Of a DNA stretch of 64,000 nucleotides, positions 19,567-63,023 are shown in pieces. Source of the DNA: a virus (taxonomy: Duplodnaviria > Caudoviricetes). The notes beneath the pieces are model-generated. The model made no database searches. It was not told where the DNA came from and worked only from the letters and a program-made list of their open reading frames with translations. A program made the translations under genes and the position numbers. Position 1 is the stretch's first letter. Each line of letters opens with the position of its first letter. The stretch is taken from positions 1 through 64,000 of IMG/VR virus record IMGVR_UViG_3300036833_000307; one strand, 5' to 3'.

Positions 19567-21050
19567 GGCGGCATGCCAACGCTGGCTCGCGAGGCGAGCG
19601 CCGCCTCGCGCATGAAGTCGATGATGCCGGTCGTGCTGTCCATCAGCAACATGTAGCCCAGCGCCACGGCATCGACCTGGTCATCGTGGCTGCCGGCGGG
19701 AAACGAGGTGAGTTCGTCGAGAAATGCCTCGGTCCAGTTAGCCCGGTAGAGTTTGACGTTGCCGATGCGGCATTGCGCGGCAAACGGATCGGCCCGATCG
19801 ATCTTGGTGTCGGACTGCGGAAACGCCGTCACCGGATAGCCGGGAATGACCTGGGTCACGTATTGCTGGGCCTGGAACTTGCCGGCCTGCGCCGGGTCCT
19901 GCGGGATCGCGATCTTGGTCATCGGCCCATCCTGTTGAGCCACCGCCTTGACCCGCTGCTGTACGCCGCCCGGGTCTTCGCGGAAACGGACCACCGAGGC
20001 GACATAGAGGATCCCGGTGGCGTTGTGGCGGCCGATCTTCACGCCGACCGACCAGTCTGGGTCAGCCTTGATCGATTTCGCGGTGCCTGCAAAATCCCAG
20101 CCGCGCGCCCAGGTGATGCCGTCGATCGGCATCTCGTCGACCACCTCGAACCACTCGCGCTTGAACAGGCCGCCCTCGCGTGAAGTCGGACGCTGCTGCT
20201 GCTGGCCGGCGACCGCGTAATCACGCAGCGTTTCCCACAGTCCTTCGAGGACCTCGTCACTGAACTTCTCCGGCCACAGCGGCTCGCCTGGGGTACGCCG
20301 CCAGTCATAGGCGTGCCGCTCCGGGTGATCCGGCTCGAACCGCGCCGGCAGGATGACATGTTGGTAGCCGCGGCGGATGCATTCGCCCTGCACATCGCCT
20401 TGGTTAACCCGTTGACCGATAACAACGGATACGCCCTGGTCTGGATTGTTGAAGCGCGAACTCATGCTTTCGAACCAGAACGAGATCGCCCGCACGCGAT
20501 CAGCGTCGCTTTCGGCATTCACCACATCGTGCGGGTCGTCAAACGTTGCGAAATCTGCCCCGTGACCGGTGATGCCGGTGTGGGGAGAACCGACATAACG
20601 CTGCCCGCCAGCGGTGGTCATGTAGAACATTTTTTGGTGCTGATCGCGCTCCAGCCTTACTTCAGGCCAACGTTCGCGATACCACGGATGTTCGACTAGA
20701 CGTCGCGTGGCAAGGCTGTCGCGCGTCGCTAGGCGCTGATCGTAGCTGCAAGAAATAATCTTACAAGACGGCCACCAAGTCCACAGCCAAGCCGGAAACG
20801 CCACAGAGCACAGCAGTGATTTAGAATAGCGCGGCGGGATGCAGATCAGTAATTTGAGGATTTCGCGCCGGGCGGCGCGCTGCAGATGATGTGTGATGAT
20901 CCGGATGTGCTTACCCGGCACGAATGGTGCTGGATCGATATAAGGCCATGCCATGATATAGAAGTCATGAAAGCTGCGCCGGCCTAACTCGCGTTCGGCC
21001 TCGATCCGCTTGGCCAGAAACTCGCTGGTGACGTTCGGATCAAACGGCAT
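19563..21050 (-). CDS. terL: Terminase large subunit
   Basis: IPPRYSKS Walker A, ATFDDPH Walker B, QQQQRP, WDFA, FPAGSHDDQVDA nuclease motif. Confidence 0.95.
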   Translation of the reverse strand: MPFDPNVTSEFLAKRIEAERELGRRSFHDFYIMAWPYIDPAPFVPGKHIRIITHHLQRAARREILKLLICIPPRYSKSLLCSVAFPAWLWTWWPSCKIISCSYDQRLATRDSLATRRLVEHPWYRERWPEVRLERDQHQKMFYMTTAGGQRYVGSPHTGITGHGADFATFDDPHDVVNAESDADRVRAISFWFESMSSRFNNPDQGVSVVIGQRVNQGDVQGECIRRGYQHVILPARFEPDHPERHAYDWRRTPGEPLWPEKFSDEVLEGLWETLRDYAVAGQQQQRPTSREGGLFKREWFEVVDEMPIDGITWARGWDFAGTAKSIKADPDWSVGVKIGRHNATGILYVASVVRFREDPGGVQQRVKAVAQQDGPMTKIAIPQDPAQAGKFQAQQYVTQVIPGYPVTAFPQSDTKIDRADPFAAQCRIGNVKLYRANWTEAFLDELTSFPAGSHDDQVDAVALGYMLLMDSTTGIIDFMREAALASRASVGMPP

Positions 21051-21071
21051 GCGTCAACAGCTCACAGCAAT

Positions 21072-21158
21072 CCGCCCCCGGTTATGGAAACCGAGGGCGG
21101 CTGCGCCTGCCGCGCCGTGACGTGACTGGCTTAGACAAGCCGTGACTTGCCTGGCCGC
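21072..21158 (-). ncRNA. Stand-alone GGC-NN mini-array (solo guide 1)
   Basis: Minus strand ggcCA ggcAA gtcAC ggcTT gtcTA agcCA gtcAC gtcAC ggcGC ggca ggcgc then a hairpin (21072-21100); TTGCCT at 21186-21191 upstream. Confidence 0.75.
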
Positions 21159-24907: not shown

Positions 24908-25032
24908 GGATCAGCCCCTACGGTGGATTAAATCAGCAATATCGCCTGCTCGGATCTCTCACAAGGCCGCGACCAAGGCTTCCGCTTCGACATAGCGGCG
25001 CCTTAATATCTGGTCCAGCGTAATAGGAACAA

Positions 25033-25278
25033 ATGCCGCCCCCCATTCCACCCGAGGTCGCCGAGGAAGTCACCTTGCTGGCCAACCGAATGACTGCCGG
25101 GCTCAATCTGCTCGAGGCCAGATATCGCAGCCATGCCGCGATCGCGATGATGATGCATCTGGCTGAACAAGTATTCCTCTACAGCAATTCTCCTGAAATC
25201 GGCTTTTTGCTGATGACCCAGATGCTCAACGAGACTTACCAGGAAGCGCTTTCCGGCCACGGCAAGAAAATCCAGTGA
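25033..25278 (+). CDS. Hypothetical protein, first gene of rightward operon
   Basis: AGGA RBS; 81 aa. Confidence 0.55.
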   Translation: MPPPIPPEVAEEVTLLANRMTAGLNLLEARYRSHAAIAMMMHLAEQVFLYSNSPEIGFLLMTQMLNETYQEALSGHGKKIQ

Positions 25279-25285
25279 GGTGCAT

Positions 25286-25876
25286 ATGTCAGCAATCGTG
25301 AAACAGCCGGTTGCGGCCCCGAGCGGTTGGCAGATCATGAAGATGTTGGAGATCGCCATCCAGCATCTCGAGCAACGCGATCGGGACATAACCGGCGACC
25401 AGGTTACCGAAGAACAGGACGAAGTTCTGGATACCGACATCGACGAATTGCTGGCGCTGCTGAAGAACAAGGGCTCCGATGTCGCCGGCATCATGACGGC
25501 ACTCCTGCTCGCCGGCGACGAGGGCAAACGCGAAGCCATGATGCTGGCCGAACGCGGCAAGCGCATAGCCTTGCGTCGCCAGCGCCGGCTGAACAAAGAG
25601 CGAAACTGCCGCAACGCCGCACTGCAGATCATGTTGACATTGCCCGAACTGTTTCCGGAGGGGAAATTCCGCGCCCCGCTGGTCGACGCTCAGGCACGGC
25701 CCGGTCGGCTGATCACCGCAGTCACTGACGAGACAAAAATCCCCGAGCGGTTCTTTGTCGTCACCCGCACGCTGGACAAGAACATGCTCAACGAAGCGGT
25801 CACCAAGGACGGCGAAGTAGTCGACGGCGCCGAGCTGCGCAACGGCGCGCCTTTCCTCGTCGTGAAAGTCACCTGA
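25286..25876 (+). CDS. Siphovirus Gp157-like protein
   Basis: Coiled coil plus DETKIPERFF...LDKNMLNEAVTKDGEVVDGAEL. Confidence 0.75.
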   Translation: MSAIVKQPVAAPSGWQIMKMLEIAIQHLEQRDRDITGDQVTEEQDEVLDTDIDELLALLKNKGSDVAGIMTALLLAGDEGKREAMMLAERGKRIALRRQRRLNKERNCRNAALQIMLTLPELFPEGKFRAPLVDAQARPGRLITAVTDETKIPERFFVVTRTLDKNMLNEAVTKDGEVVDGAELRNGAPFLVVKVT

Positions 25877-25907
25877 CGCAGCAATCCAAAGGAAGGAGAA
25901 ACCCAAC

Positions 25908-26762
25908 ATGCTGCTCACACGCCCATCGACCAAGACCCGCGGTAACGGTGCGCCTATGCCTCCCGCGCTGCCGAAGCGCCGCGGCCGGCCACCCAAGGTT
26001 GCCATGGCATTGGAAGTACCTGCCGCACCGGTCAAGCGCCGCGGCCGGCCGCCCAAGATAATCCGCGGATTGGAAAAAATGCGGCCGGTGAAAGCGAAAA
26101 TTCCGCCGCTCTCGGAGGGTGAGATCACTGCGCTATTGAGCGGCAAGCCACCACAGAAAATCGCTATCACCGCACCCAACCTTACCACCGCCACGATCAC
26201 CGTCGTCGGGGTAACCCCGTACGTCCAGAACGCCTTTACCGAAAAGCAACGGCTGATAATGGAAGAAACCCAACGCCAAGGTCAGCAGGCGCGTGGCAAA
26301 AAGGTGCGCAAGCCAAAGGATTTCGACGCCATCTACCGCAATGCCCAGCATCGCTCCAAGGAAGACTGGATTGGCATTCCGGCCGCCGCCTTTCGCAACG
26401 CCATGATCGACGCCACTCGTCTCGTCGGTGTCACCATGCAGCATGCCAAGATGAGCATTTTTATCGAAGCCGACGGCTACGACGCCCAAGACATGCGGGG
26501 ACTGGTCAAGATCCAGGGCGAGCCGCGACCATACAAGGCCCCGGTGCGCAATTCGAGCGGTGTCGCGGACATCAGATGGCGTCCGATGTGGGAAAAGTGG
26601 AAGGCCACCGTTCGTGTGACCTGGGATGCCGATCAGTACAGCGCAACCGACATCATGAACTTGATGTTGCGAGCAGGTCTCCAGGTCGGCATCGGTGAAG
26701 GCAGACCCAACAGTCCCAAATCCAACGGCCAGGACTGGGGCCGCTTTCGGATTGCCCCCTGA
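25908..26762 (+). CDS. RAMP/Cas7-like RNA-binding protein (VIPR-type effector candidate) with N-terminal AT-hook-like repeats
   Basis: TITVVGVTPY first strand, GIPAAAFRNAMIDA, IRWRP, C-terminal Gly-rich loop AGLQVGIGEGRP...DWGRF; two KRRGRPPK repeats; sits upstream of the GGC-NN array. Confidence 0.75.
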   Translation: MLLTRPSTKTRGNGAPMPPALPKRRGRPPKVAMALEVPAAPVKRRGRPPKIIRGLEKMRPVKAKIPPLSEGEITALLSGKPPQKIAITAPNLTTATITVVGVTPYVQNAFTEKQRLIMEETQRQGQQARGKKVRKPKDFDAIYRNAQHRSKEDWIGIPAAAFRNAMIDATRLVGVTMQHAKMSIFIEADGYDAQDMRGLVKIQGEPRPYKAPVRNSSGVADIRWRPMWEKWKATVRVTWDADQYSATDIMNLMLRAGLQVGIGEGRPNSPKSNGQDWGRFRIAP

Positions 26763-27283
26763 TGGCGGCGACACGCCGCCAGATCCGGGCCGAATTGCTA
26801 GCGCTCAAAAGCGACGACGGCCTCATCTACCCGGAGCGGGTACATGGATGGGCTCAGCGCCACCCGAATTCCGCGCTGTACAATTCGCTGAACTGGGACG
26901 ATGCCACAGCCGCGCACGAGCACCGGCTTTGGCAAATCCGACAGTTGATCCAGGTGCACATCACGATCGTCAGCGGCACCCGTGAATTCGTTTCGTTGAC
27001 CATCGACCGGGCAAGCGGCGGTGGTTATCGCGAGGTCGCCGATGTCGTCGCCTCCGGCAACCTACGGCAGATCATGTTGGACGATGCGCTCGAAGATTTG
27101 GAACGGGTGCGTCGCAAATACCAACTCCTCGACGAATTGGCGGGGGTCTGGAAGGCGGCAGAAGCCGCTCGTCCGACACCGCGCAGGAAACGGGCACAAC
27201 CCGCCCGCAAGAAGTCGTCACCCCGCCGACGGCGCCCGCTACCGGGCGGCGGTGATGATGGCCAGCCATCTGCGCCGGCATGA
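26762..27283 (+). CDS. Partner protein translationally coupled to the RAMP-like gene
   Basis: TGATG stop/start overlap; HPNSALYNSLNWDDATAAHEHRLWQIRQLI. Confidence 0.8.
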   Translation: MAATRRQIRAELLALKSDDGLIYPERVHGWAQRHPNSALYNSLNWDDATAAHEHRLWQIRQLIQVHITIVSGTREFVSLTIDRASGGGYREVADVVASGNLRQIMLDDALEDLERVRRKYQLLDELAGVWKAAEAARPTPRRKRAQPARKKSSPRRRRPLPGGGDDGQPSAPA

Positions 27284-27301
27284 AGCAGATGGATCGGCCA
27301 T

Positions 27302-28543
27302 GGCAGGCTCGGCAAGGCGCGTCTCGACGTGGCAGCGCATGGCATGTCTCGGCCGGACAGGGCAGGCACGGCAGGTCCTGGCGCGACGCGGTCGGGCAGG
27401 ACATGGCATGGCCGGGCAGGCCAGGCGGGGCGGGGCTCGACGCGGCTAGGCACCGCAACGCTCGGCAAGGCGGGTCCCGGCAGGCATGGCGTGGCGTGTC
27501 CAGGCCCGCCCGGGCATGTCCCGGCAGGCCGGGCACGGCGAGGCCTGTCACGACGAGCCACGGCTCGGCATGGCAGGCGCGGATGGCGCGGATGGCAAGC
27601 CAAGACGGGGCCGGGCAGGCGTGGCACGGCACGGTCAGTCCGGGCTACGCGCGTCCAGGCTTGGCAGGCGTGGCATGACTGGGCTTGGCGTGGCAGGGCG
27701 GAGCCCGCCCCGGCAGGCATGGCATGACTGGGCTTGGCGCGTCTCGTCTGGGCTTGGCGCGGCAGGCATGGCTCGGCCCGTCTTGGCCCGGCACGGCGGG
27801 GCAGCGCAGGCGTGGCAGGTCCCGACGAGGCATGGCCGGGCCTGCCGCGGCTCGGCGGGGCATGGCGGGGCAGGCGCGTCATGGCATGGCCCGTCCCGGC
27901 CTGCCGAGGCGTGGCCCGCCACGGCATGGCAGGCGTGGCAAGCCTCGGCGAGGCAAGGCGTGGCAAGGCCCGGCAGGGCAGGCGCGGCAAGGCGGGGCGG
28001 GGCCGGTCCTGGCTCGACATGCCCCGGCTCGGCAGGCACTGGCTCGGCAATGGCTCACCGGCCGAGCATGGCAGGCGTGGCTTGGCCTGGCGGGGCGTGG
28101 CCTGTCACGGCCCGGCCCGTCTCGGCAGGCTTGGCGCGACAGGCCCAGGCATGGCTCAGCTCGGCTCGGCGGGGCAGGCGTAGCAAGTCTCGGCTGGGCA
28201 AGACGTGGCAAGGCGAGACGAGCCTGGGCAGGCACGGCACGGCGAGCCTTGGCTTGGCTAGGCGTGGCCCGCCAGGGCATGGCAGGCATGGCGAGGCTAG
28301 CCTCGGCAAGGCGCGGCCCGGCGCGGCGTGGCAGGCCAGACGCGGCAAGGCGGGGCTCGGAGCGGCGCGGCGTGGCCAAGCGCGGCAGGCGCGGCAGGCT
28401 CGGCAACGGTTCACCGGCCGAGCCCACCCCGCGGCAGGCATGGCACGGCCTGGCCCGGCCCGACGAGGCACGGCGTGGCGAGACTAGGCAGGCGCGGCCA
28501 GGCATGGCTTGGCAAGGCTGGGCGCGGCAGGCAAGGAGTGGCA
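27302..28543 (+). repeat. Non-coding array of GGC-NN pentamers in about 23-25 units delimited by GGCA (putative guide-RNA array)
   Basis: Strict 5-nt period (GGC, sometimes GTC/GAC/GCC/AGC/CGC, plus 2 variable nt), mostly 7-12 pentamers per unit, phase reset by GGCA; all overlapping ORFs are low-complexity artefacts. Confidence 0.9.
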
Positions 28544-28551
28544 GACCCGCA

Positions 28552-29649
28552 ATGGAAACCATCCGCCTCGAGGACGACGAGATGCCACCCTCTCGGTACA
28601 CTCGATCACCCCCGCGGGTCTGCTCTCGCCATGGCACAACGTTCTTTTCGTTGTTCAATTGTCCAGCTTGCCGTCCGGAACACCTAGTCGCCCTGTCACC
28701 ATACGGATCCATGAATGCCAGTCAGCCTCGCCCAGCAGATCCGCTGCGTTGAACGCGAGCTCCGGCTGCGCCGCCACGTCTACCCACGCTGGATCGAGGA
28801 AAAGCGCCTCAGCCAAGCGGACGCGGACGCGGAAATTCTGGCAATGGAGGCCGTCTTGAGCACACTTGGCCGGCTATGGACCGAGCAGCATCCGGTCCAG
28901 GCCTCTCTGCCGTTGGAGAAGACCGACGAGGAGGGATGATATGCAGAACCGCCACCCCGACGATCCAGAAAAGCAAGACGATCCAGAAAAGCTGCCCAGC
29001 GATGGCTGGGAAGATGTCGCCTCCCGCAACATCGGCGATTACCTGGAGCGCATAGCGGTCCCTGGTGGGTGGCTGTATCGCCAGTATTTCGCCAAGGAAA
29101 CCACCCCGACATGCGTGGCCCTGGTATTCGTGCCGCAGCCGCCGTGATCGCGATCGACGGCCAAAACGTGAACCAAACACCAACCCCTTGCGGCGAATCG
29201 GAGCAAACCTGCACAGCGCGCTAGCCACCATTTACTTTGCGAGCTCGCCAGCCATGCCAGTGTTCCGCTCTCCGAGCGGTCGGATCAAACGCTTCATCTG
29301 CTCACGCGATATGTTCCTGCGCTGGGCCTGCTTGCCTTATGGCACGTGGTTAACCGGCGAAGGACGACAGATCCTGTTCAACCGGTTCTACGAGCCGATC
29401 TGGCAACGGCTGGCGGACGGCAGCACCGAACCGGCGGACCCGACGGAATGGGTCCAGAGCATTACCGACCGGCGCTGGTTTTACCATGACGGACACAACG
29501 AGCGTGAAAAACGCGTGATGGCACGCGCTGCGCTGCGGGCCTGGAGCTTGCCCGAGCCGAGCTGTGCGGACATCGCGGCGCTACAGCAACCGATCCGGCG
29601 AAGGTTGCATGAGCTAAGCCGCCGGCGGCTTCTCAGCGCGGTATCGTAG
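28552..29649 (+). CDS. Four small hypothetical genes (28552-28752, 28715-28939, 28941-29147, ~29144-29649)
   Basis: 28715-28939 (QQIRCVERELRLRRHVYPRWI) looks like a common phage family; the others have RBS or coupling. Confidence 0.55.
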
Positions 29650-34707: not shown

Positions 34708-34826
34708 CCACGAGCCAGGCTACCAGACACCAAGATTGACACCAAAAGCCCCTGTAACCCAGGGGCTTTTCGGCTTTTCTAGCCCAGAAAAATGCCCATA
34801 TATACAGCACATTGCGCTCGCAGACC

Positions 34827-35055
34827 TTGCGGCCGGTGAACCGTCGCCGCAAAGCCAGCCAAGCCTGCCGCGCCCAACCCGGCCCTGCCTGGCCGCGCCA
34901 TGTCCTGCCTGGCCTGCCGCCCCTGGCCCGGCCTAGCCCTGCCTGGCTGCGTCTCGCCATGCCGTGCCAAGTCCAGCCCTGCCTCGCCCGACCAAGCCAC
35001 GCCTGCCATGACCCGCCGTGCCTAGCCTGCCAGGGCCTGCCGCGCCTTGTCCCAG
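34827..35055 (-). ncRNA. Stand-alone GGC-NN mini-array (solo guide locus 2, about 3 units)
   Basis: Pentamer period on the minus strand; TTGACG(35081-86)-N18-TACGAT(35057-62) promoter; ends in a hairpin with the GACGGTTCACCG loop. Confidence 0.85.
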
Positions 35056-35155
35056 CATCGTATGCTCTATTTTACCGCGGCGTCAAATCAGCTCTCCCGC
35101 ACACCCTGCGGGGCAGAAAAGCGTCTCTGCGCTCAGACGCAGAAAGCATTCCATC

Positions 35156-37725: not shown

Positions 37726-37942
37726 GCGTCCGGCGCCAGAAAAAACCCCGCGACTGGCATGGGCGCCGCGAGGTTTCAGGTACTTGTGTCATCCGCTTAG
37801 AGTGCCTTGCACCTGCTTGCCTTGTCCGGGCGCGTATCCAGTCCAGGGAGTTCGCGTCCGGCCACGACCGGCCTGAGCCATGCCGCCATAACAGGGGGAC
37901 ATCAGTCTACGGGCGGGTTCAGATCAGGGTCAACACAGACTG

Positions 37943-38039
37943 GACCCCGCAGCCGGCAAGCACCGAACCCGCGGGGTCGCCGTGCCTGCCCTGGCTTGCC
38001 GGGCCATGCCTCGCCGTGACACGCCAGGCCAGGCCTGCC
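37943..38039 (-). ncRNA. Stand-alone GGC-NN mini-array (solo guide 3)
   Basis: ggca + 9 pentamers + ggca ggcac, then a hairpin; TTGATC(38073-78)-N17-TACCTT(38050-55) promoter. Confidence 0.85.
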
Positions 38040-38074
38040 AGGTTACATCAAGGTAGACCGAGTTTGACTTGAGA

Positions 38075-46697: not shown

Positions 46698-46752
46698 TGG
46701 CTCGGAAACCGCGCTTGCATTTCCAGTCCATGCCGCTAGACTGCATTTTGTC

Positions 46753-46850
46753 GGCTCGACGCGGCATGGCGCGACTTGGCCAGTCCCGGCTCGGCTTGGC
46801 AGGCACGGAGAAGCAGGACCCAGAAGCACCATGCCGCTTCCGGGTCCTGC
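46753..46850 (+). ncRNA. Stand-alone GGC-NN mini-array (solo guide 4)
   Basis: 9 pentamers + ggca ggcac + hairpin; TTGCAT(46715-20)-N16-TAGACT(46737-42) promoter. Confidence 0.85.
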
Positions 46851-51094: not shown

Positions 51095-51215
51095 GGCGCG
51101 GCTCGTCTAAGCCCGACATGGCAGGCTCGGCAAGACAAGGCACGGCGGGGCTCGGCATGGCCGGGCTTGGCAGGCGCGGCCTATGGACCCGGAGGAAACC
51201 TGCCTCCTCCGGGTC
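51095..51215 (+). ncRNA. Stand-alone GGC-NN mini-array (solo guide locus 5, 2 units)
   Basis: 5 + 9 pentamers separated by ggca, then a hairpin; TTGAGT(51064-69)-N16-TAAGCT(51086-91) promoter. Confidence 0.85.
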
Positions 51216-53167: not shown

Positions 53168-55235
53168 CGCCGAACGGCTGGCCCAGGCGGTGCTGCTGTT
53201 CCATCGCGGCGGCCCGTGGACGGCCTTAGACAGCGGCCACTGGCTGGCGCTGACCGGCAAGGTGGACTGCACCACCAAGGTGCTCTGCGACCTTGCCCGC
53301 CGCATCCTCGAGACCGCCGAGCGTGAGGTAGTGATCCAGCTACCGTTGGAGCCATTGAGCGATGCGGACATCCGGCAGGCCGCGCTAGGCCCCCTGGAAT
53401 GGAAGCAGCGCTGATGCCGCGCTGGTCTGAGGTCGTCACCATCACCCTGCCGGACGGCACACAGGCTCAAGCCATCGTCTGTGGCAGCGGCAAGCGTCCG
53501 CGTACGCCGCGCTGCCGCTGCGGCCGGACGTCGAGCATCCAGTGCGACTTTCCGCTGCTGGATGGCAAGACCTGCGACCAACACCTGTGTCGCTCCTGCG
53601 CCGTCCCGGTCGGGCGCAACCGCGACTACTGCCCCGAGCATCCACGGTGAGTACCACCCGCCGCACCCCTCGTTACGAGGACGTCCAGCCGGTCAAGGAC
53701 CTCGTCACCAACGAGGAGATGTACGAGGCGATGGTCTACATGGACCAGAGCCCGCACGACTATGCCGAGGCGGTCGCTGACGCTGAGTACGCCGCGTACA
53801 AAATCCGCATGGCCGAGGCAGTCGGCATCCTCGTGTCGGGCGAACGGAACGCCGCCCGCCAACAAGCTGATGCCCGCACCTCGCAAGCCTATGCCAACGC
53901 CGTTGAGGACAACCGCCGCGCGCAGATGCAAGCCGAGATGATGAAAGCCAGGCGCGCCGCTGCACAGTTGAAAATCGAGGTATGGCGAACCCTTCGCGCC
54001 GACCAACGCGCCCGGGATGTGTCCGAACCAGGAAGTAGATGATGACGCGTGCGAAAAGGGCTCTCCAGCCTAAGCCGAAGAGCCCCGTGCCGCGTCCGGC
54101 GTTGCCACGTCCTGCCAAGCCTCGTCTCGCCGCAGCATGTCATGCCTGGCCGTGTGTGGCATAGGCACATCACGATATGCCACATTTTTTATCCTTGGCA
54201 ACGGTTCGCTGATGCCCTGCCGCGACTGTAATCACTGGAACCGGGTTCCGGTCTGCGCTGCCCTCGAGCGCTTTACCCCCGGCTGGTGTGAAGTCCAGCA
54301 CCGTGCGGTATTCCCGCACTATCACTGCCCCAGGTGGGTACAACGCGAGGTCACCCACGCCGAGGTCGGCCTCACCCGCGACGAAGTCGCCTGGGCGCGC
54401 CAGCATCGTGACGACCCATCGGTTCGCGCCCTCAACTTCCTGTTCCGCCGCATCCAGTTCCAGCCGCAGAACCCCGCGATCCGCGCGGAATTCACCACGA
54501 CGCTGGAAATCTGGCGCAGCAAGCGACGTATCGCATTCGGTCAACCGGAGGAAATGCCATGAGCGGGACCGGCTTCCCCGAAGGTTTCGCTATCGTTCAT
54601 GCCGGACAACTCTACCGACCGATTGGCACCCGGGAATTCGTCAACACCAAGGGTCAGCGGGTGATGTGCATCGACTGGCGTTCGGTCTGTCCGGAGTGCG
54701 GTGAGGCTTTCACCCTCACCACCGGCCGGCGCTGGCAGCGCCCGCACGCACGCCGTTGTCCGGGTTGTCGAGCGCCGGGCCAAGCGGTGCAAGATGCTCG
54801 TATCGGGCAGCGATAGACCCTATATAATAAGCCGCAACGATCTGCCTCCCGGCCCGAGCATCGGTGACCGGCAGTGAACCCGGCTGCTCCCGGGGGAAAG
54901 GCATATCAATGTCAGAACCAGTATCCCGCATCCAGATCCTCGCTCCTGAGCGGCTGGATGCCTTCTTCGCACACTATCATTCCGGCGCGGACTACGGGCT
55001 GTTTCGCCAGGGTCTCGCCCGGCTGCTGGAGCTCTGCTCCCGCTATTGCTCAAATCTTCCTGCTGGCGCGTACCGCGTCGCCAGCCTCATGCCTGACCAC
55101 CGCGATTTCCAATCAATCGACTGGTGCATTCAGGAAAATCCGGAGCCATCCGGATTCCACGGCAAGCACATCATCAATGGTGGCTTAAACCACCACAGCG
55201 ATGTTTCCACTCCAACGTGGAGCATCAACACTTAG
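53154..55235 (+). CDS. Small hypothetical genes (53154-53414, 53414-53650, 53647-54042, 54212-54562, 54559-54816, 54909-55235)
   Basis: Coupled ORFs, several Cys-rich. Confidence 0.6.
54058..54151 (-). ncRNA. Stand-alone GGC-NN mini-array (solo guide 6)
   Basis: 13 pentamers on the minus strand then hairpin + T4; TTGCCA(54196-201)-N18-TATCGT(54172-77). Confidence 0.8.
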
Positions 55236-62171: not shown

Positions 62172-62237
62172 CGGTTGTCTCCTCTTTCAGGATCAACTTG
62201 ACGGGACTGCTAAAATCTGGCACACATGAATGTGCCA

Positions 62238-62338
62238 GGCAGGCCGGGCTCGGCATGACGTGGCACGGTGCGGCGCGGCTGGGCTCGACATGGCATGGCC
62301 CGGCAGGCACGGGACCCTCCGGCTTCGGCCGGAGGGTC
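62238..62338 (+). ncRNA. Stand-alone GGC-NN mini-array (solo guide 7)
   Basis: ggca + 12 pentamers + ggca ggcac + GC hairpin with TTCG loop, antisense in the gap between two structural genes. Confidence 0.85.
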
Positions 62339-63023
62339 ATTGCAGCCGCAGGATCGCATGCGTTGCGTCAGCGGCAGGCATGACGATGGTAAAGGTTCCT
62401 GATGCGACTTGTTGGCGGCCACCGAAGTCGCCGGCATAGATCGCTCTGCCGCTGCCCGTAGTACTGGCGCCGCTGGCGCCACCGAGGCGAGGATTGACAC
62501 CGGAATTGTAAATTATGCAGCCATCGCTATCAATTGTGGCACTGGTCCAACTGATGGTGCCGCCAAAGCTGACGAACGCGGTAGAGCCGGCCACAGCGGG
62601 CGAGACGTTGCTGAGCCCCAGGCCGCCCGCGGCGTAGCCAACGCCGACCACCTCATCGACGTTGCTGGTGACATCGGCGTAGTTCACCGACGCCGCGCCG
62701 TAGGTGCCAACCGGAGCGTGCCGGATCAGCGCAATCCGGAACACATCGCCGTTGAAGCTCAGCGCGACGCCGGTCGCGGTGGCGGTAGCGTTCGGATAGA
62801 TCTTGATCGCCGTGGCGCTGGTGATCTGCGAGACGATGCAGCCGACCGGGATCCCGGGGCCCGAAACGCGCATTCCGACGCTGATCCCGACCATGCTAGC
62901 GAGCGTATCGACAATATCATTGCTATAAGTGTTGCCGGTCGTGTTCACGGTGCCGCCGAAGCAATGGGCGCCGGCGAACAGCTCGGACTTGAAACTGGTC
63001 GGCATCGCGGTGGTGATTGCCAT
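62337..63023 (-). CDS. Virion structural (tail-associated) protein
   Basis: MAITTAMPTSFKSEL...FRIAL...EVVGVGYAAGG...WTSATI...DFGG...GTFTI. Confidence 0.7.
   Translation of the reverse strand: MAITTAMPTSFKSELFAGAHCFGGTVNTTGNTYSNDIVDTLASMVGISVGMRVSGPGIPVGCIVSQITSATAIKIYPNATATATGVALSFNGDVFRIALIRHAPVGTYGAASVNYADVTSNVDEVVGVGYAAGGLGLSNVSPAVAGSTAFVSFGGTISWTSATIDSDGCIIYNSGVNPRLGGASGASTTGSGRAIYAGDFGGRQQVASGTFTIVMPAADATHAILRLQ

Follow-up and report, generated by a model that had tools for sequence, protein, structure and literature searches.

The locus described here occupies positions 25908–28543 of a 64,000-bp stretch of phage DNA (hereafter, the window), which corresponds to bases 1–64000 of the 102,563-bp IMG/VR virus record IMGVR_UViG_3300036833_000307; the ends of this record are direct terminal repeats (DTRs), and it is rated complete. 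In 5' to 3' order, the locus comprises a gene for a RAMP protein (vipr), a partner gene (vap) and a 1.24-kb array of pentamers, and very probably represents a phage-encoded VIPR (Viral Interference Programmable Repeat) system with a staggered guide array. VIPR was first described in 2026 preprints as a system consisting of the RAMP protein Vipr, a vap gene and guide RNAs (vrRNAs) in which GGY triplets alternate with two variable bases, NN (bioRxiv 10.64898/2026.04.26.720920). According to the same source, one Vipr protomer is engaged per repeat, one base of the DNA is passed over between one NN pair and the next, the output is the transcriptional silencing of competing mobile elements, and seven types are distinguished. 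In the 'staggered arrays' of its fig. S18, adjacent vrRNAs share one nucleotide.

An earlier reading of the window, made from the letters alone (the sequence-only reading), had proposed a two-gene unit with a TGATG overlap, and the two open reading frames (ORFs), both on the + strand, do have base 26762 in common; about 20 nt lie between the end of vap and the start of the array. The features of the locus are the following, with the basis of each call in brackets where it applies:

25908–26762, + strand: vipr, encoding a 284-residue single-RRM RAMP (Cas7-like) protein (PHROG, PDB profile, AlphaFold2)
25974–26057, + strand: two AT-hook-like KRRGRPPK motifs (translation, family alignment, model confidence)
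26762–27283, + strand: vap, encoding 173 residues (PHROG, synteny, AlphaFold2)
27306–28543, + strand: staggered vrRNA array of 22 full guides plus stubs (register-tracking parse)
27306–27364, + strand: guide 1 (11 NN), fitting the vap motif of rival VIPR systems
27419–27482, + strand: guide 3 (12 NN), fitting ParB_N/MT-A70 methylase codons
27873–27931, + strand: guide 12 (11 NN), fitting the GxSxG codons of patatin-like phospholipases
28041–28068, + strand: array hairpin 1, stem GCTCGGC/GCCGAGC, conserved loop AATGGCTCACCG
28397–28424, + strand: array hairpin 2, the same element, loop AACGGTTCACCG

Vipr is assigned to PHROG 4652 (E 6e-15), and searches of Pfam and NCBIfam with the protein returned no family. 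Its own family is extensive, with 1,227 clusters at 90% identity, 3,464 clusters at 50% identity and 383 IMG/VR contigs. The RAMP/Cas7-like fold suspected earlier was recovered by structure prediction: the AlphaFold2 model (predicted local distance difference test score, pLDDT, 77) has a single-RRM RAMP fold with a thumb and a glycine-rich loop, and ranks 1–27 of a VIA-wide structural comparison were all CRISPR RAMPs. The top match was Csm3 (Z 9.7, root-mean-square deviation 4.0, 145 residues aligned), followed by Cmr4, Cas7-11 and the type VII Cas7; in Foldseek, the leading matches were Csm3, Cmr4 and Cas7 (E 3e-5). When all PDB sequences were searched, the only significant match was the Vipr of Escherichia phage SUSP1 (PDB 36pp_D), at E 0.54 with the single sequence, 1e-4 with a 26-sequence profile and 2.9e-6 with a 60-sequence profile, and nothing else fell below E 0.3. 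VIPR, which the sequence-only reading had named, is a published system to which the window protein can be linked by sequence.

The two Vipr proteins align over a region that begins at the thumb and reaches the glycine-rich loop, which is where the sequence-only reading had pointed. The GGY is held in the SUSP1 structure by H17, R138, D177, W178 and R179, two adjacent protomers acting jointly (10.64898/2026.04.26.720927, PDB 36pp). R138, D177 and R179 align onto R225, E264 and R266 of the window Vipr, and the SUSP1 loop GVGDWRP onto its glycine-rich loop GIGEGRP (residues 261–267). Residues 1–60 of the window protein are predicted to be disordered (pLDDT below 55), and this N-terminal extension carries the AT-hook-like motif KRRGRPPK at residues 23–30 (25974–25997) and 43–50 (26034–26057). 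Most family members lack the extension, an RGRP-type motif is present there in 6 of 26 aligned sequences, and the term AT-hook does not occur in bioRxiv 10.64898/2026.04.26.720920.

The 173-residue Vap belongs to PHROG 15946 (E 7e-16) and matched no family in Pfam or NCBIfam. Its AlphaFold2 model (pLDDT 86.6) is composed of an N-terminal winged-helix-like domain, a helical hairpin and a basic tail, and the predicted fold is compatible with, but not proof of, the 'WH-like' vap of the VIPR paper. For comparison, we used 80 related IMG/VR viral loci (hereafter, relatives), taken as 12-kb loci in the guide searches and amounting to about 1 Mb of related DNA; a vap homologue lies directly 3' of vipr in 61 of the 80.

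The array itself shows a lag-5 autocorrelation of 0.55, as compared with about 0.27 at neighbouring lags (about 27291–28543). The strict five-nucleotide period first ascribed to the 1.24-kb tract therefore holds in its main feature but not without breaks: the register moves by −1 after each truncated GGCA, and it is broken by two hairpins of about 28 nt (28041–28068 and 28397–28424) and by a 9-nt duplication. In a strict phase-aware scan of the genome, where a tract was defined by at least 6 of 7 in-phase GGY, tracts were detected only in the main array and at a few short dispersed spots, and none occurred in 20 shuffled genomes. A register-tracking parse divided the array into 22 full units of 7–12 pentamers each plus three to four short stubs; the punctuation by GGCA noted earlier was confirmed, with GGCA ending 21 units and CGCA one. 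Unit lengths are 39, 44, 49, 54, 59 or 64 nt, always 4 + 5n and covering all three classes modulo 3, and no other of the 81 loci compared has as many guides. The 4-nt GGCA step amounts to a one-base overlap of neighbouring guides, and the window array therefore has the staggered layout.

Among the 206 pentamers, the fixed triplet is GGC in 145, GTC in 19, GAC in 17 and GCC in 14. Position 3 is C in 203 and the first G is near-invariant, whereas the middle G is conserved at only about 72%, so that the "nearly constant GGC" of the sequence-only reading applies to two of its three bases. All 16 dinucleotides are used at NN, with an entropy of 3.88 of 4 bits. At least four same-strand YNNGG/GGYNN pentamers with hypervariable NN beside vipr are taken to mark such an array; here there are 206. 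Side by side with these regularities, the 9-nt unit GGCGCGGAT is tandemly duplicated at 27578–27595 and breaks the pentamer register, which has the look of a trace left by slippage in a sixth unit that has degenerated. Partial NN strings are common to guides 8 and 9 and to guides 13 and 17 (27667–27764 and 27932–28230); these may be variant guides directed against alleles of one target.

The two hairpins have a conserved loop, AAYGGYTCACCG, and belong to an element with the invariant core GGCAAYGGYTCACCGGCC; the fold z-score of hairpin 2 (28397–28424) is −2.3. The same hairpin ends a second array at 34.8 kb (34820–34850, − strand) and closes all three arrays examined in a sister phage (L139, 553–580, 2653–2680 and 10013–10040, − strand). 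Across the six copies in the two phages the outer stem covaries, with five pairs showing compensatory changes, and the element was absent from the loci of the other 79 relatives and from Rfam. Since the hairpin that closes arrays elsewhere also interrupts the main array, the latter looks like three arrays joined head to tail, with 14 guides, 6 guides and then 2 guides plus stubs. The hairpin may serve to end transcription, to direct processing or to cap the filament.

The association of the pentamers with vipr is conserved. Rather than standing without adjacent arrays, the homologues carry same-strand in-phase GGY tracts within about 1.5 kb of vipr in 72 of the 80 loci, in line with the co-occurrence predicted by the sequence-only reading. 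Under a looser parse of the relatives, the strand of vipr carries 433 guides and the opposite strand 4; the modal length is 9–10 pentamers, and the terminal unit was GGCA in 265 of 460 guides. The sister phage has a genome of 104.5 kb, to which 60% of the window phage's genome aligns at about 72% identity; Vipr and Vap are about 60% identical between the two phages, and only guides 3 and 12 are common to both.

Guide targets were sought under the published rule, in which NN pairs are read on the target with one base skipped between them (the one-skip rule). When the 460 guides were compared with the related DNA, considering guides of at least 10 NN and matches of at least 90%, a skip of one base gave 7 matches, and skips of 0, 2 and 3 bases gave 0, 1 and 1. 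Against their own genome, the window guides yielded no match above shuffled controls under any skip rule, and the VIPR loci of the original paper are likewise without self-targets (bioRxiv 10.64898/2026.04.26.720920). As a side observation, 15 of 18 bases of guide 7 (27618–27666) fit the own-genome site 54408–54433 (+ strand), and the best of 30 shuffles scored one fewer; the site may represent an allele of the guide's actual target that resists it.

Guide 1 and its counterpart in the sister phage both point to rival VIPR systems. The sister's guide 1 matches the window vipr at 26430–26461 at 20 of 22 bases, in frame and with the skipped base at the codon wobble position, where the best of 300 shuffles reached 18; this match is one of the 7 counted above for a skip of one base. 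The reverse complement of the window's guide 1 decodes to LR[DE][IM][IM]LT[DE]A[FL][DE], a motif of vap, and among its ten best NN matches in the 80 relatives, nine fall on the homologous vap site (the best, in L009, at 19 of 22). The sole own-genome match at the protein level above the null is also that of guide 1, at vap 27062–27100 (LRQIMLDDALE). Beyond this vap site, no guide gave anything above shuffles in the 12-kb loci of the 80 relatives, and in the whole sister genome the only match came from a solo guide at genome position 91371, outside the window.

Guides 3 and 12 led to targets in the wider databases; the IMG/VR scans were restricted to exact gapped patterns. The form of guide 3 shared with the sister matched exactly in eight metagenome contigs and three metagenome-assembled genomes (MAGs), in every case in frame and with the wobble base skipped, and the matched codons encode GPF[DE]LVYADPPW of ParB_N/MT-A70 DNA methylases. 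The target gene has a Pfam MT-A70 match at 4.9e-23 and adjoins a tyrosine integrase in one locus. Because the MAGs are taxonomically mixed (two Actinomycetota and one Acetobacteraceae), the match tracks a conserved motif and not a taxon. The shared form of guide 12 had 45 exact matches in IMG/VR, all in frame, in codons for [IV][AV]GTSTGGIIA, the catalytic GxSxG motif of patatin-like phospholipases. All ten guide-12 target genes tested matched PADLOC phospholipase effector models (E as low as 1e-107), and of six loci scanned for neighbouring genes, three have a CD-NTase gene beside the target, which identifies these three as operons of the cyclic oligonucleotide-based antiphage signalling system (CBASS). 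The window phage's own guides 3 and 12 fit these targets at 23 of 24 and 21 of 22 bases, respectively.

Exact patterns of 20–22 bases from six other guide sequences (guides 1, 3, 18, 11 with NN 2–11, 21 and 15) had no match in IMG/VR, so that chance matches for patterns of that size are close to zero. Guide 11 did not match the records of five large relatives with 3 mismatches allowed, and no further guide of the array converges on the methylase and patatin loci. Every target match spans one GGCA-delimited unit exactly, its first and last pentamers included, and the terminal AG of GGCA(G) is unpaired at the guide-3 target. As the matches begin and end at unit borders, they lend computational support to the GGCA-delimited units as the functional guides, as first supposed, and to GGCA as their punctuation. 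Guides 1, 3 and 12 are antisense to their target genes, while the sister's guide 1 is sense; guides that fit either strand suggest recognition of DNA rather than mRNA.

Vipr and the array share some features with CRISPR effectors. Csm3, Cmr4 and Cas7 polymerise along a guide with a fixed period. The window Vipr has the RRM core, thumb and glycine-rich loop in common with these Class 1 RAMPs (9g9a_D, 6s6b_I; Z 8–9.7); the period of CRISPR RAMPs is 6, whereas that of the window array is 5, with a target read with gaps. Unlike Class 1 CRISPR loci, the window locus has no repeat/spacer array, Cas6 handle, large or small subunit or adaptation genes. Repeats alternating with spacers, together with cas1 and cas2, define CRISPR–Cas; no repeat/spacer blocks were found at the locus and no Cas1 in the genome, and an Rfam scan of 25000–29500 returned no family, CRISPR or other. 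The DTR-bounded record therefore provides a viral context without CRISPR array or adaptation genes, and the view that the system is not CRISPR is upheld.

Staggered VIPR is the closest published counterpart (bioRxiv 10.64898/2026.04.26.720920). It likewise has vipr and vap followed by GGY/NN guides with a one-base overlap; it is phage-borne, with no cas genes or CRISPR repeats, and the same is true here. VIPR and the staggered layout are already published, and the window locus adds a further case, in which 22 guides form three blocks split by a lineage-specific hairpin. The window Vipr is homologous to that of the type II systems, known from Escherichia phage SUSP1 and a Pseudomonas fulva prophage (same preprint), and its glycine-rich loop and thumb arginine align with theirs. 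Pentamer guides, the one-skip code, wobble-aligned targets, guides against rival VIPR systems and the lack of self-targeting are shared with SUSP1. However, SUSP1 has separate vrRNAs of about 100 nt with an invariant 3' pseudoknot tail, whereas the window guides abut at GGCA, with two internal hairpins among 22, and have no individual tail; the locus is therefore not classed as type II. It further differs from SUSP1 in the replacement of W178 by Gly, the looser middle G, the extra AT-hook-like N-terminus and a sequence similarity of only E 1e-6.

Together with what Vipr shows in sequence and fold, with the structure of the array and its conservation beside vipr and vap in relatives, with the lack of self-targets and with the in-frame matches of guides 1, 3 and 12, these comparisons lead us to put the probability of a phage-encoded VIPR system that uses a staggered guide array at roughly 0.9. 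Several points weigh against this reading. In the original work, small-RNA sequencing confirmed the ribozyme-interspersed and single-guide layouts and left the staggered one unconfirmed (bioRxiv 10.64898/2026.04.26.720920). The likeness to SUSP1 Vipr is limited to about 50 residues; W178, which stacks on G2 in SUSP1, is Gly (G265) in the window protein, and H17 falls tentatively on N108, a position that is His in most homologues, by way of an N-terminal alignment that does not reach significance. The winged-helix matches of Vap are weak (Z up to 6.2, Foldseek E 0.2–1), and scans of 25000–29200 for sigma-70 promoters and intrinsic terminators found no consensus. A target class was identified for only 3 of the 22 guides, and the database-wide targets of guides 3 and 12 are exact to the sister's variant, the window guides being one mismatch off. 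The change from W to G might fit the looser middle G of the repeat.

On the VIPR reading, a single long RNA probably carries vipr, vap and the array. Along the array, Vipr protomers would polymerise, one per pentamer, each holding G-G/N-C and displaying NN. Each GGCA step, with its one-base overlap, would mark the end of one filament and guide and the start of the next, giving ribonucleoproteins (RNPs) of about 40–65 nt. The earlier proposal of one subunit per GGC needs amending in that two adjacent protomers jointly hold each GGY in the structure. The RNP would then find double-stranded DNA by reading NN-x-NN-x, the skipped base usually being a codon wobble position, and, by analogy with SUSP1, would block transcription with the assistance of the winged-helix-like Vap. 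Binding or repression, the output suggested by the sequence-only reading, fits the published mechanism and the absence of Cas1.

It is improbable, in our view, that this is a VIPR-type system with an output other than simple repression, in which Vap recruits a host nuclease or helicase or the RNP acts on RNA. In its favour, VIPR types with nuclease or helicase vaps have been described (bioRxiv 10.64898/2026.04.26.720920), the window vap family has no match in Pfam or NCBIfam and a winged-helix fold that is only weakly matched, and the window Vipr stands far from the type II protein that has been characterised. Against it, neither Vap nor the genes immediately around it show a nuclease or helicase domain, and guides that fit both strands of target genes suggest DNA. 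A neutral or structural tandem repeat, produced by slippage or serving as an array of DNA-binding sites and having no guide function, is considerably less probable still. The doubled GGCGCGGAT and the partly alike guides 8/9 and 13/17 do mark the tract as prone to duplication, but it keeps its fixed positions while the entropy at NN is close to the highest possible, its strand is linked to that of vipr at 433:4 in the 80 loci, the GGCA punctuation is conserved, and the in-frame target matches are far above chance. That the tract is a stop-poor, low-complexity region coding for a Gly/Ala/Arg-rich protein is the least likely of all, for the ORFs of 277–355 residues that cross it do so in several frames at once and on both strands, the period is 5 and not 3, the frame changes at every GGCA, all classes modulo 3 are represented among the unit lengths, the 333-residue ORF has no Pfam match, the sister shares only two guides despite Vipr and Vap proteins of about 60% identity, and NN pairs read with one base skipped decode into conserved motifs of unrelated proteins.

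Within the VIPR reading, we tentatively suggest, as a possibility that we regard as rather doubtful, that the guides shared with the sister are broad-spectrum anti-defence guides, which would silence gene families of the host or of resident mobile elements through invariant catalytic motifs read with the wobble base skipped. For the CBASS patatin effectors of the CapV/CapE type the motif concerned is GTSTGG, and for the ParB/MT-A70 methylases it is ADPPW. On the same reading, the GGCA punctuation of the array and its terminal hairpin would point to a so far uncharacterised way of processing guides. If this is true, VIPR serves against immune or epigenetic cargo besides rival phage genes, in contrast with guides aimed at the sequence of one rival. 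The matches point to two target classes, the catalytic site of a CBASS-type phospholipase and a ParB/MT-A70 methylase of an integrative element; in the part of the VIPR literature that was searched by term, methylase and CBASS-type targets are not mentioned. It is these catalytic-motif guides, above all, that make the locus noteworthy, next to the size and blocks of the array, the lineage-specific hairpin, the AT-hook-like extension and the W-to-G change. The locus also adds a complete, DTR-bounded phage genome in which the less-studied staggered layout is seen at large scale.

In the same genome, the 22-guide main array is accompanied by a second, short array and several stand-alone guide genes, of which the following are called in the window:

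34816–35066, − strand: second, shorter vrRNA array, ending in the same hairpin (loop 34833–34845)
37941–38059, − strand: stand-alone guide gene (in-phase scan and inspection)
51095–51198, + strand: stand-alone guide gene (in-phase scan and inspection)
62218–62341, + strand: stand-alone guide gene (in-phase scan and inspection)

GGYNN units far from vipr were also seen at 46749–46812 (+), 54030–54130 (−) and 21040–21140 (−), and one more lies outside the window at genome positions 91282–91381 (−). Five of these eight dispersed places, seven in the window and that at 91.3 kb, passed the strict in-phase scan. A TAAAAT-like −10 box stands in front of several of these units, and the units finish with GGCA-GGC and a hairpin. 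The dispersed guide at genome position 91371 (−) matches the sister genome at 66732 at 20 of 22 bases, under the one-skip rule only. Solo vrRNAs, as reported in bioRxiv 10.64898/2026.10.15.759431, are also dispersed single guides with vipr and vap of relatives as targets, as found here; they differ in clade and layout, and in the window the solo guides coexist with an intact vipr–vap pair.

Directly 5' of vipr lies a gene (25280–25876, +) for a Gam-like/Siphovirus Gp157 protein (Pfam PF05565 at 1.7e-7), which also belongs to PHROG 253, the Mu Gam-like end protection proteins. Since there is no promoter consensus between this gene and vipr, vipr, vap and the array may belong to an early recombination operon. 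A blastn comparison of the phage with deposited phages gave no match. Among the relatives, the dispersed guides L015:2569 (−) and L016:2089 (−) match each other's genomes, at 21 of 22 and 20 of 22 bases, and a guide of the L015 main array matches the vipr of L016 at 19 of 20.

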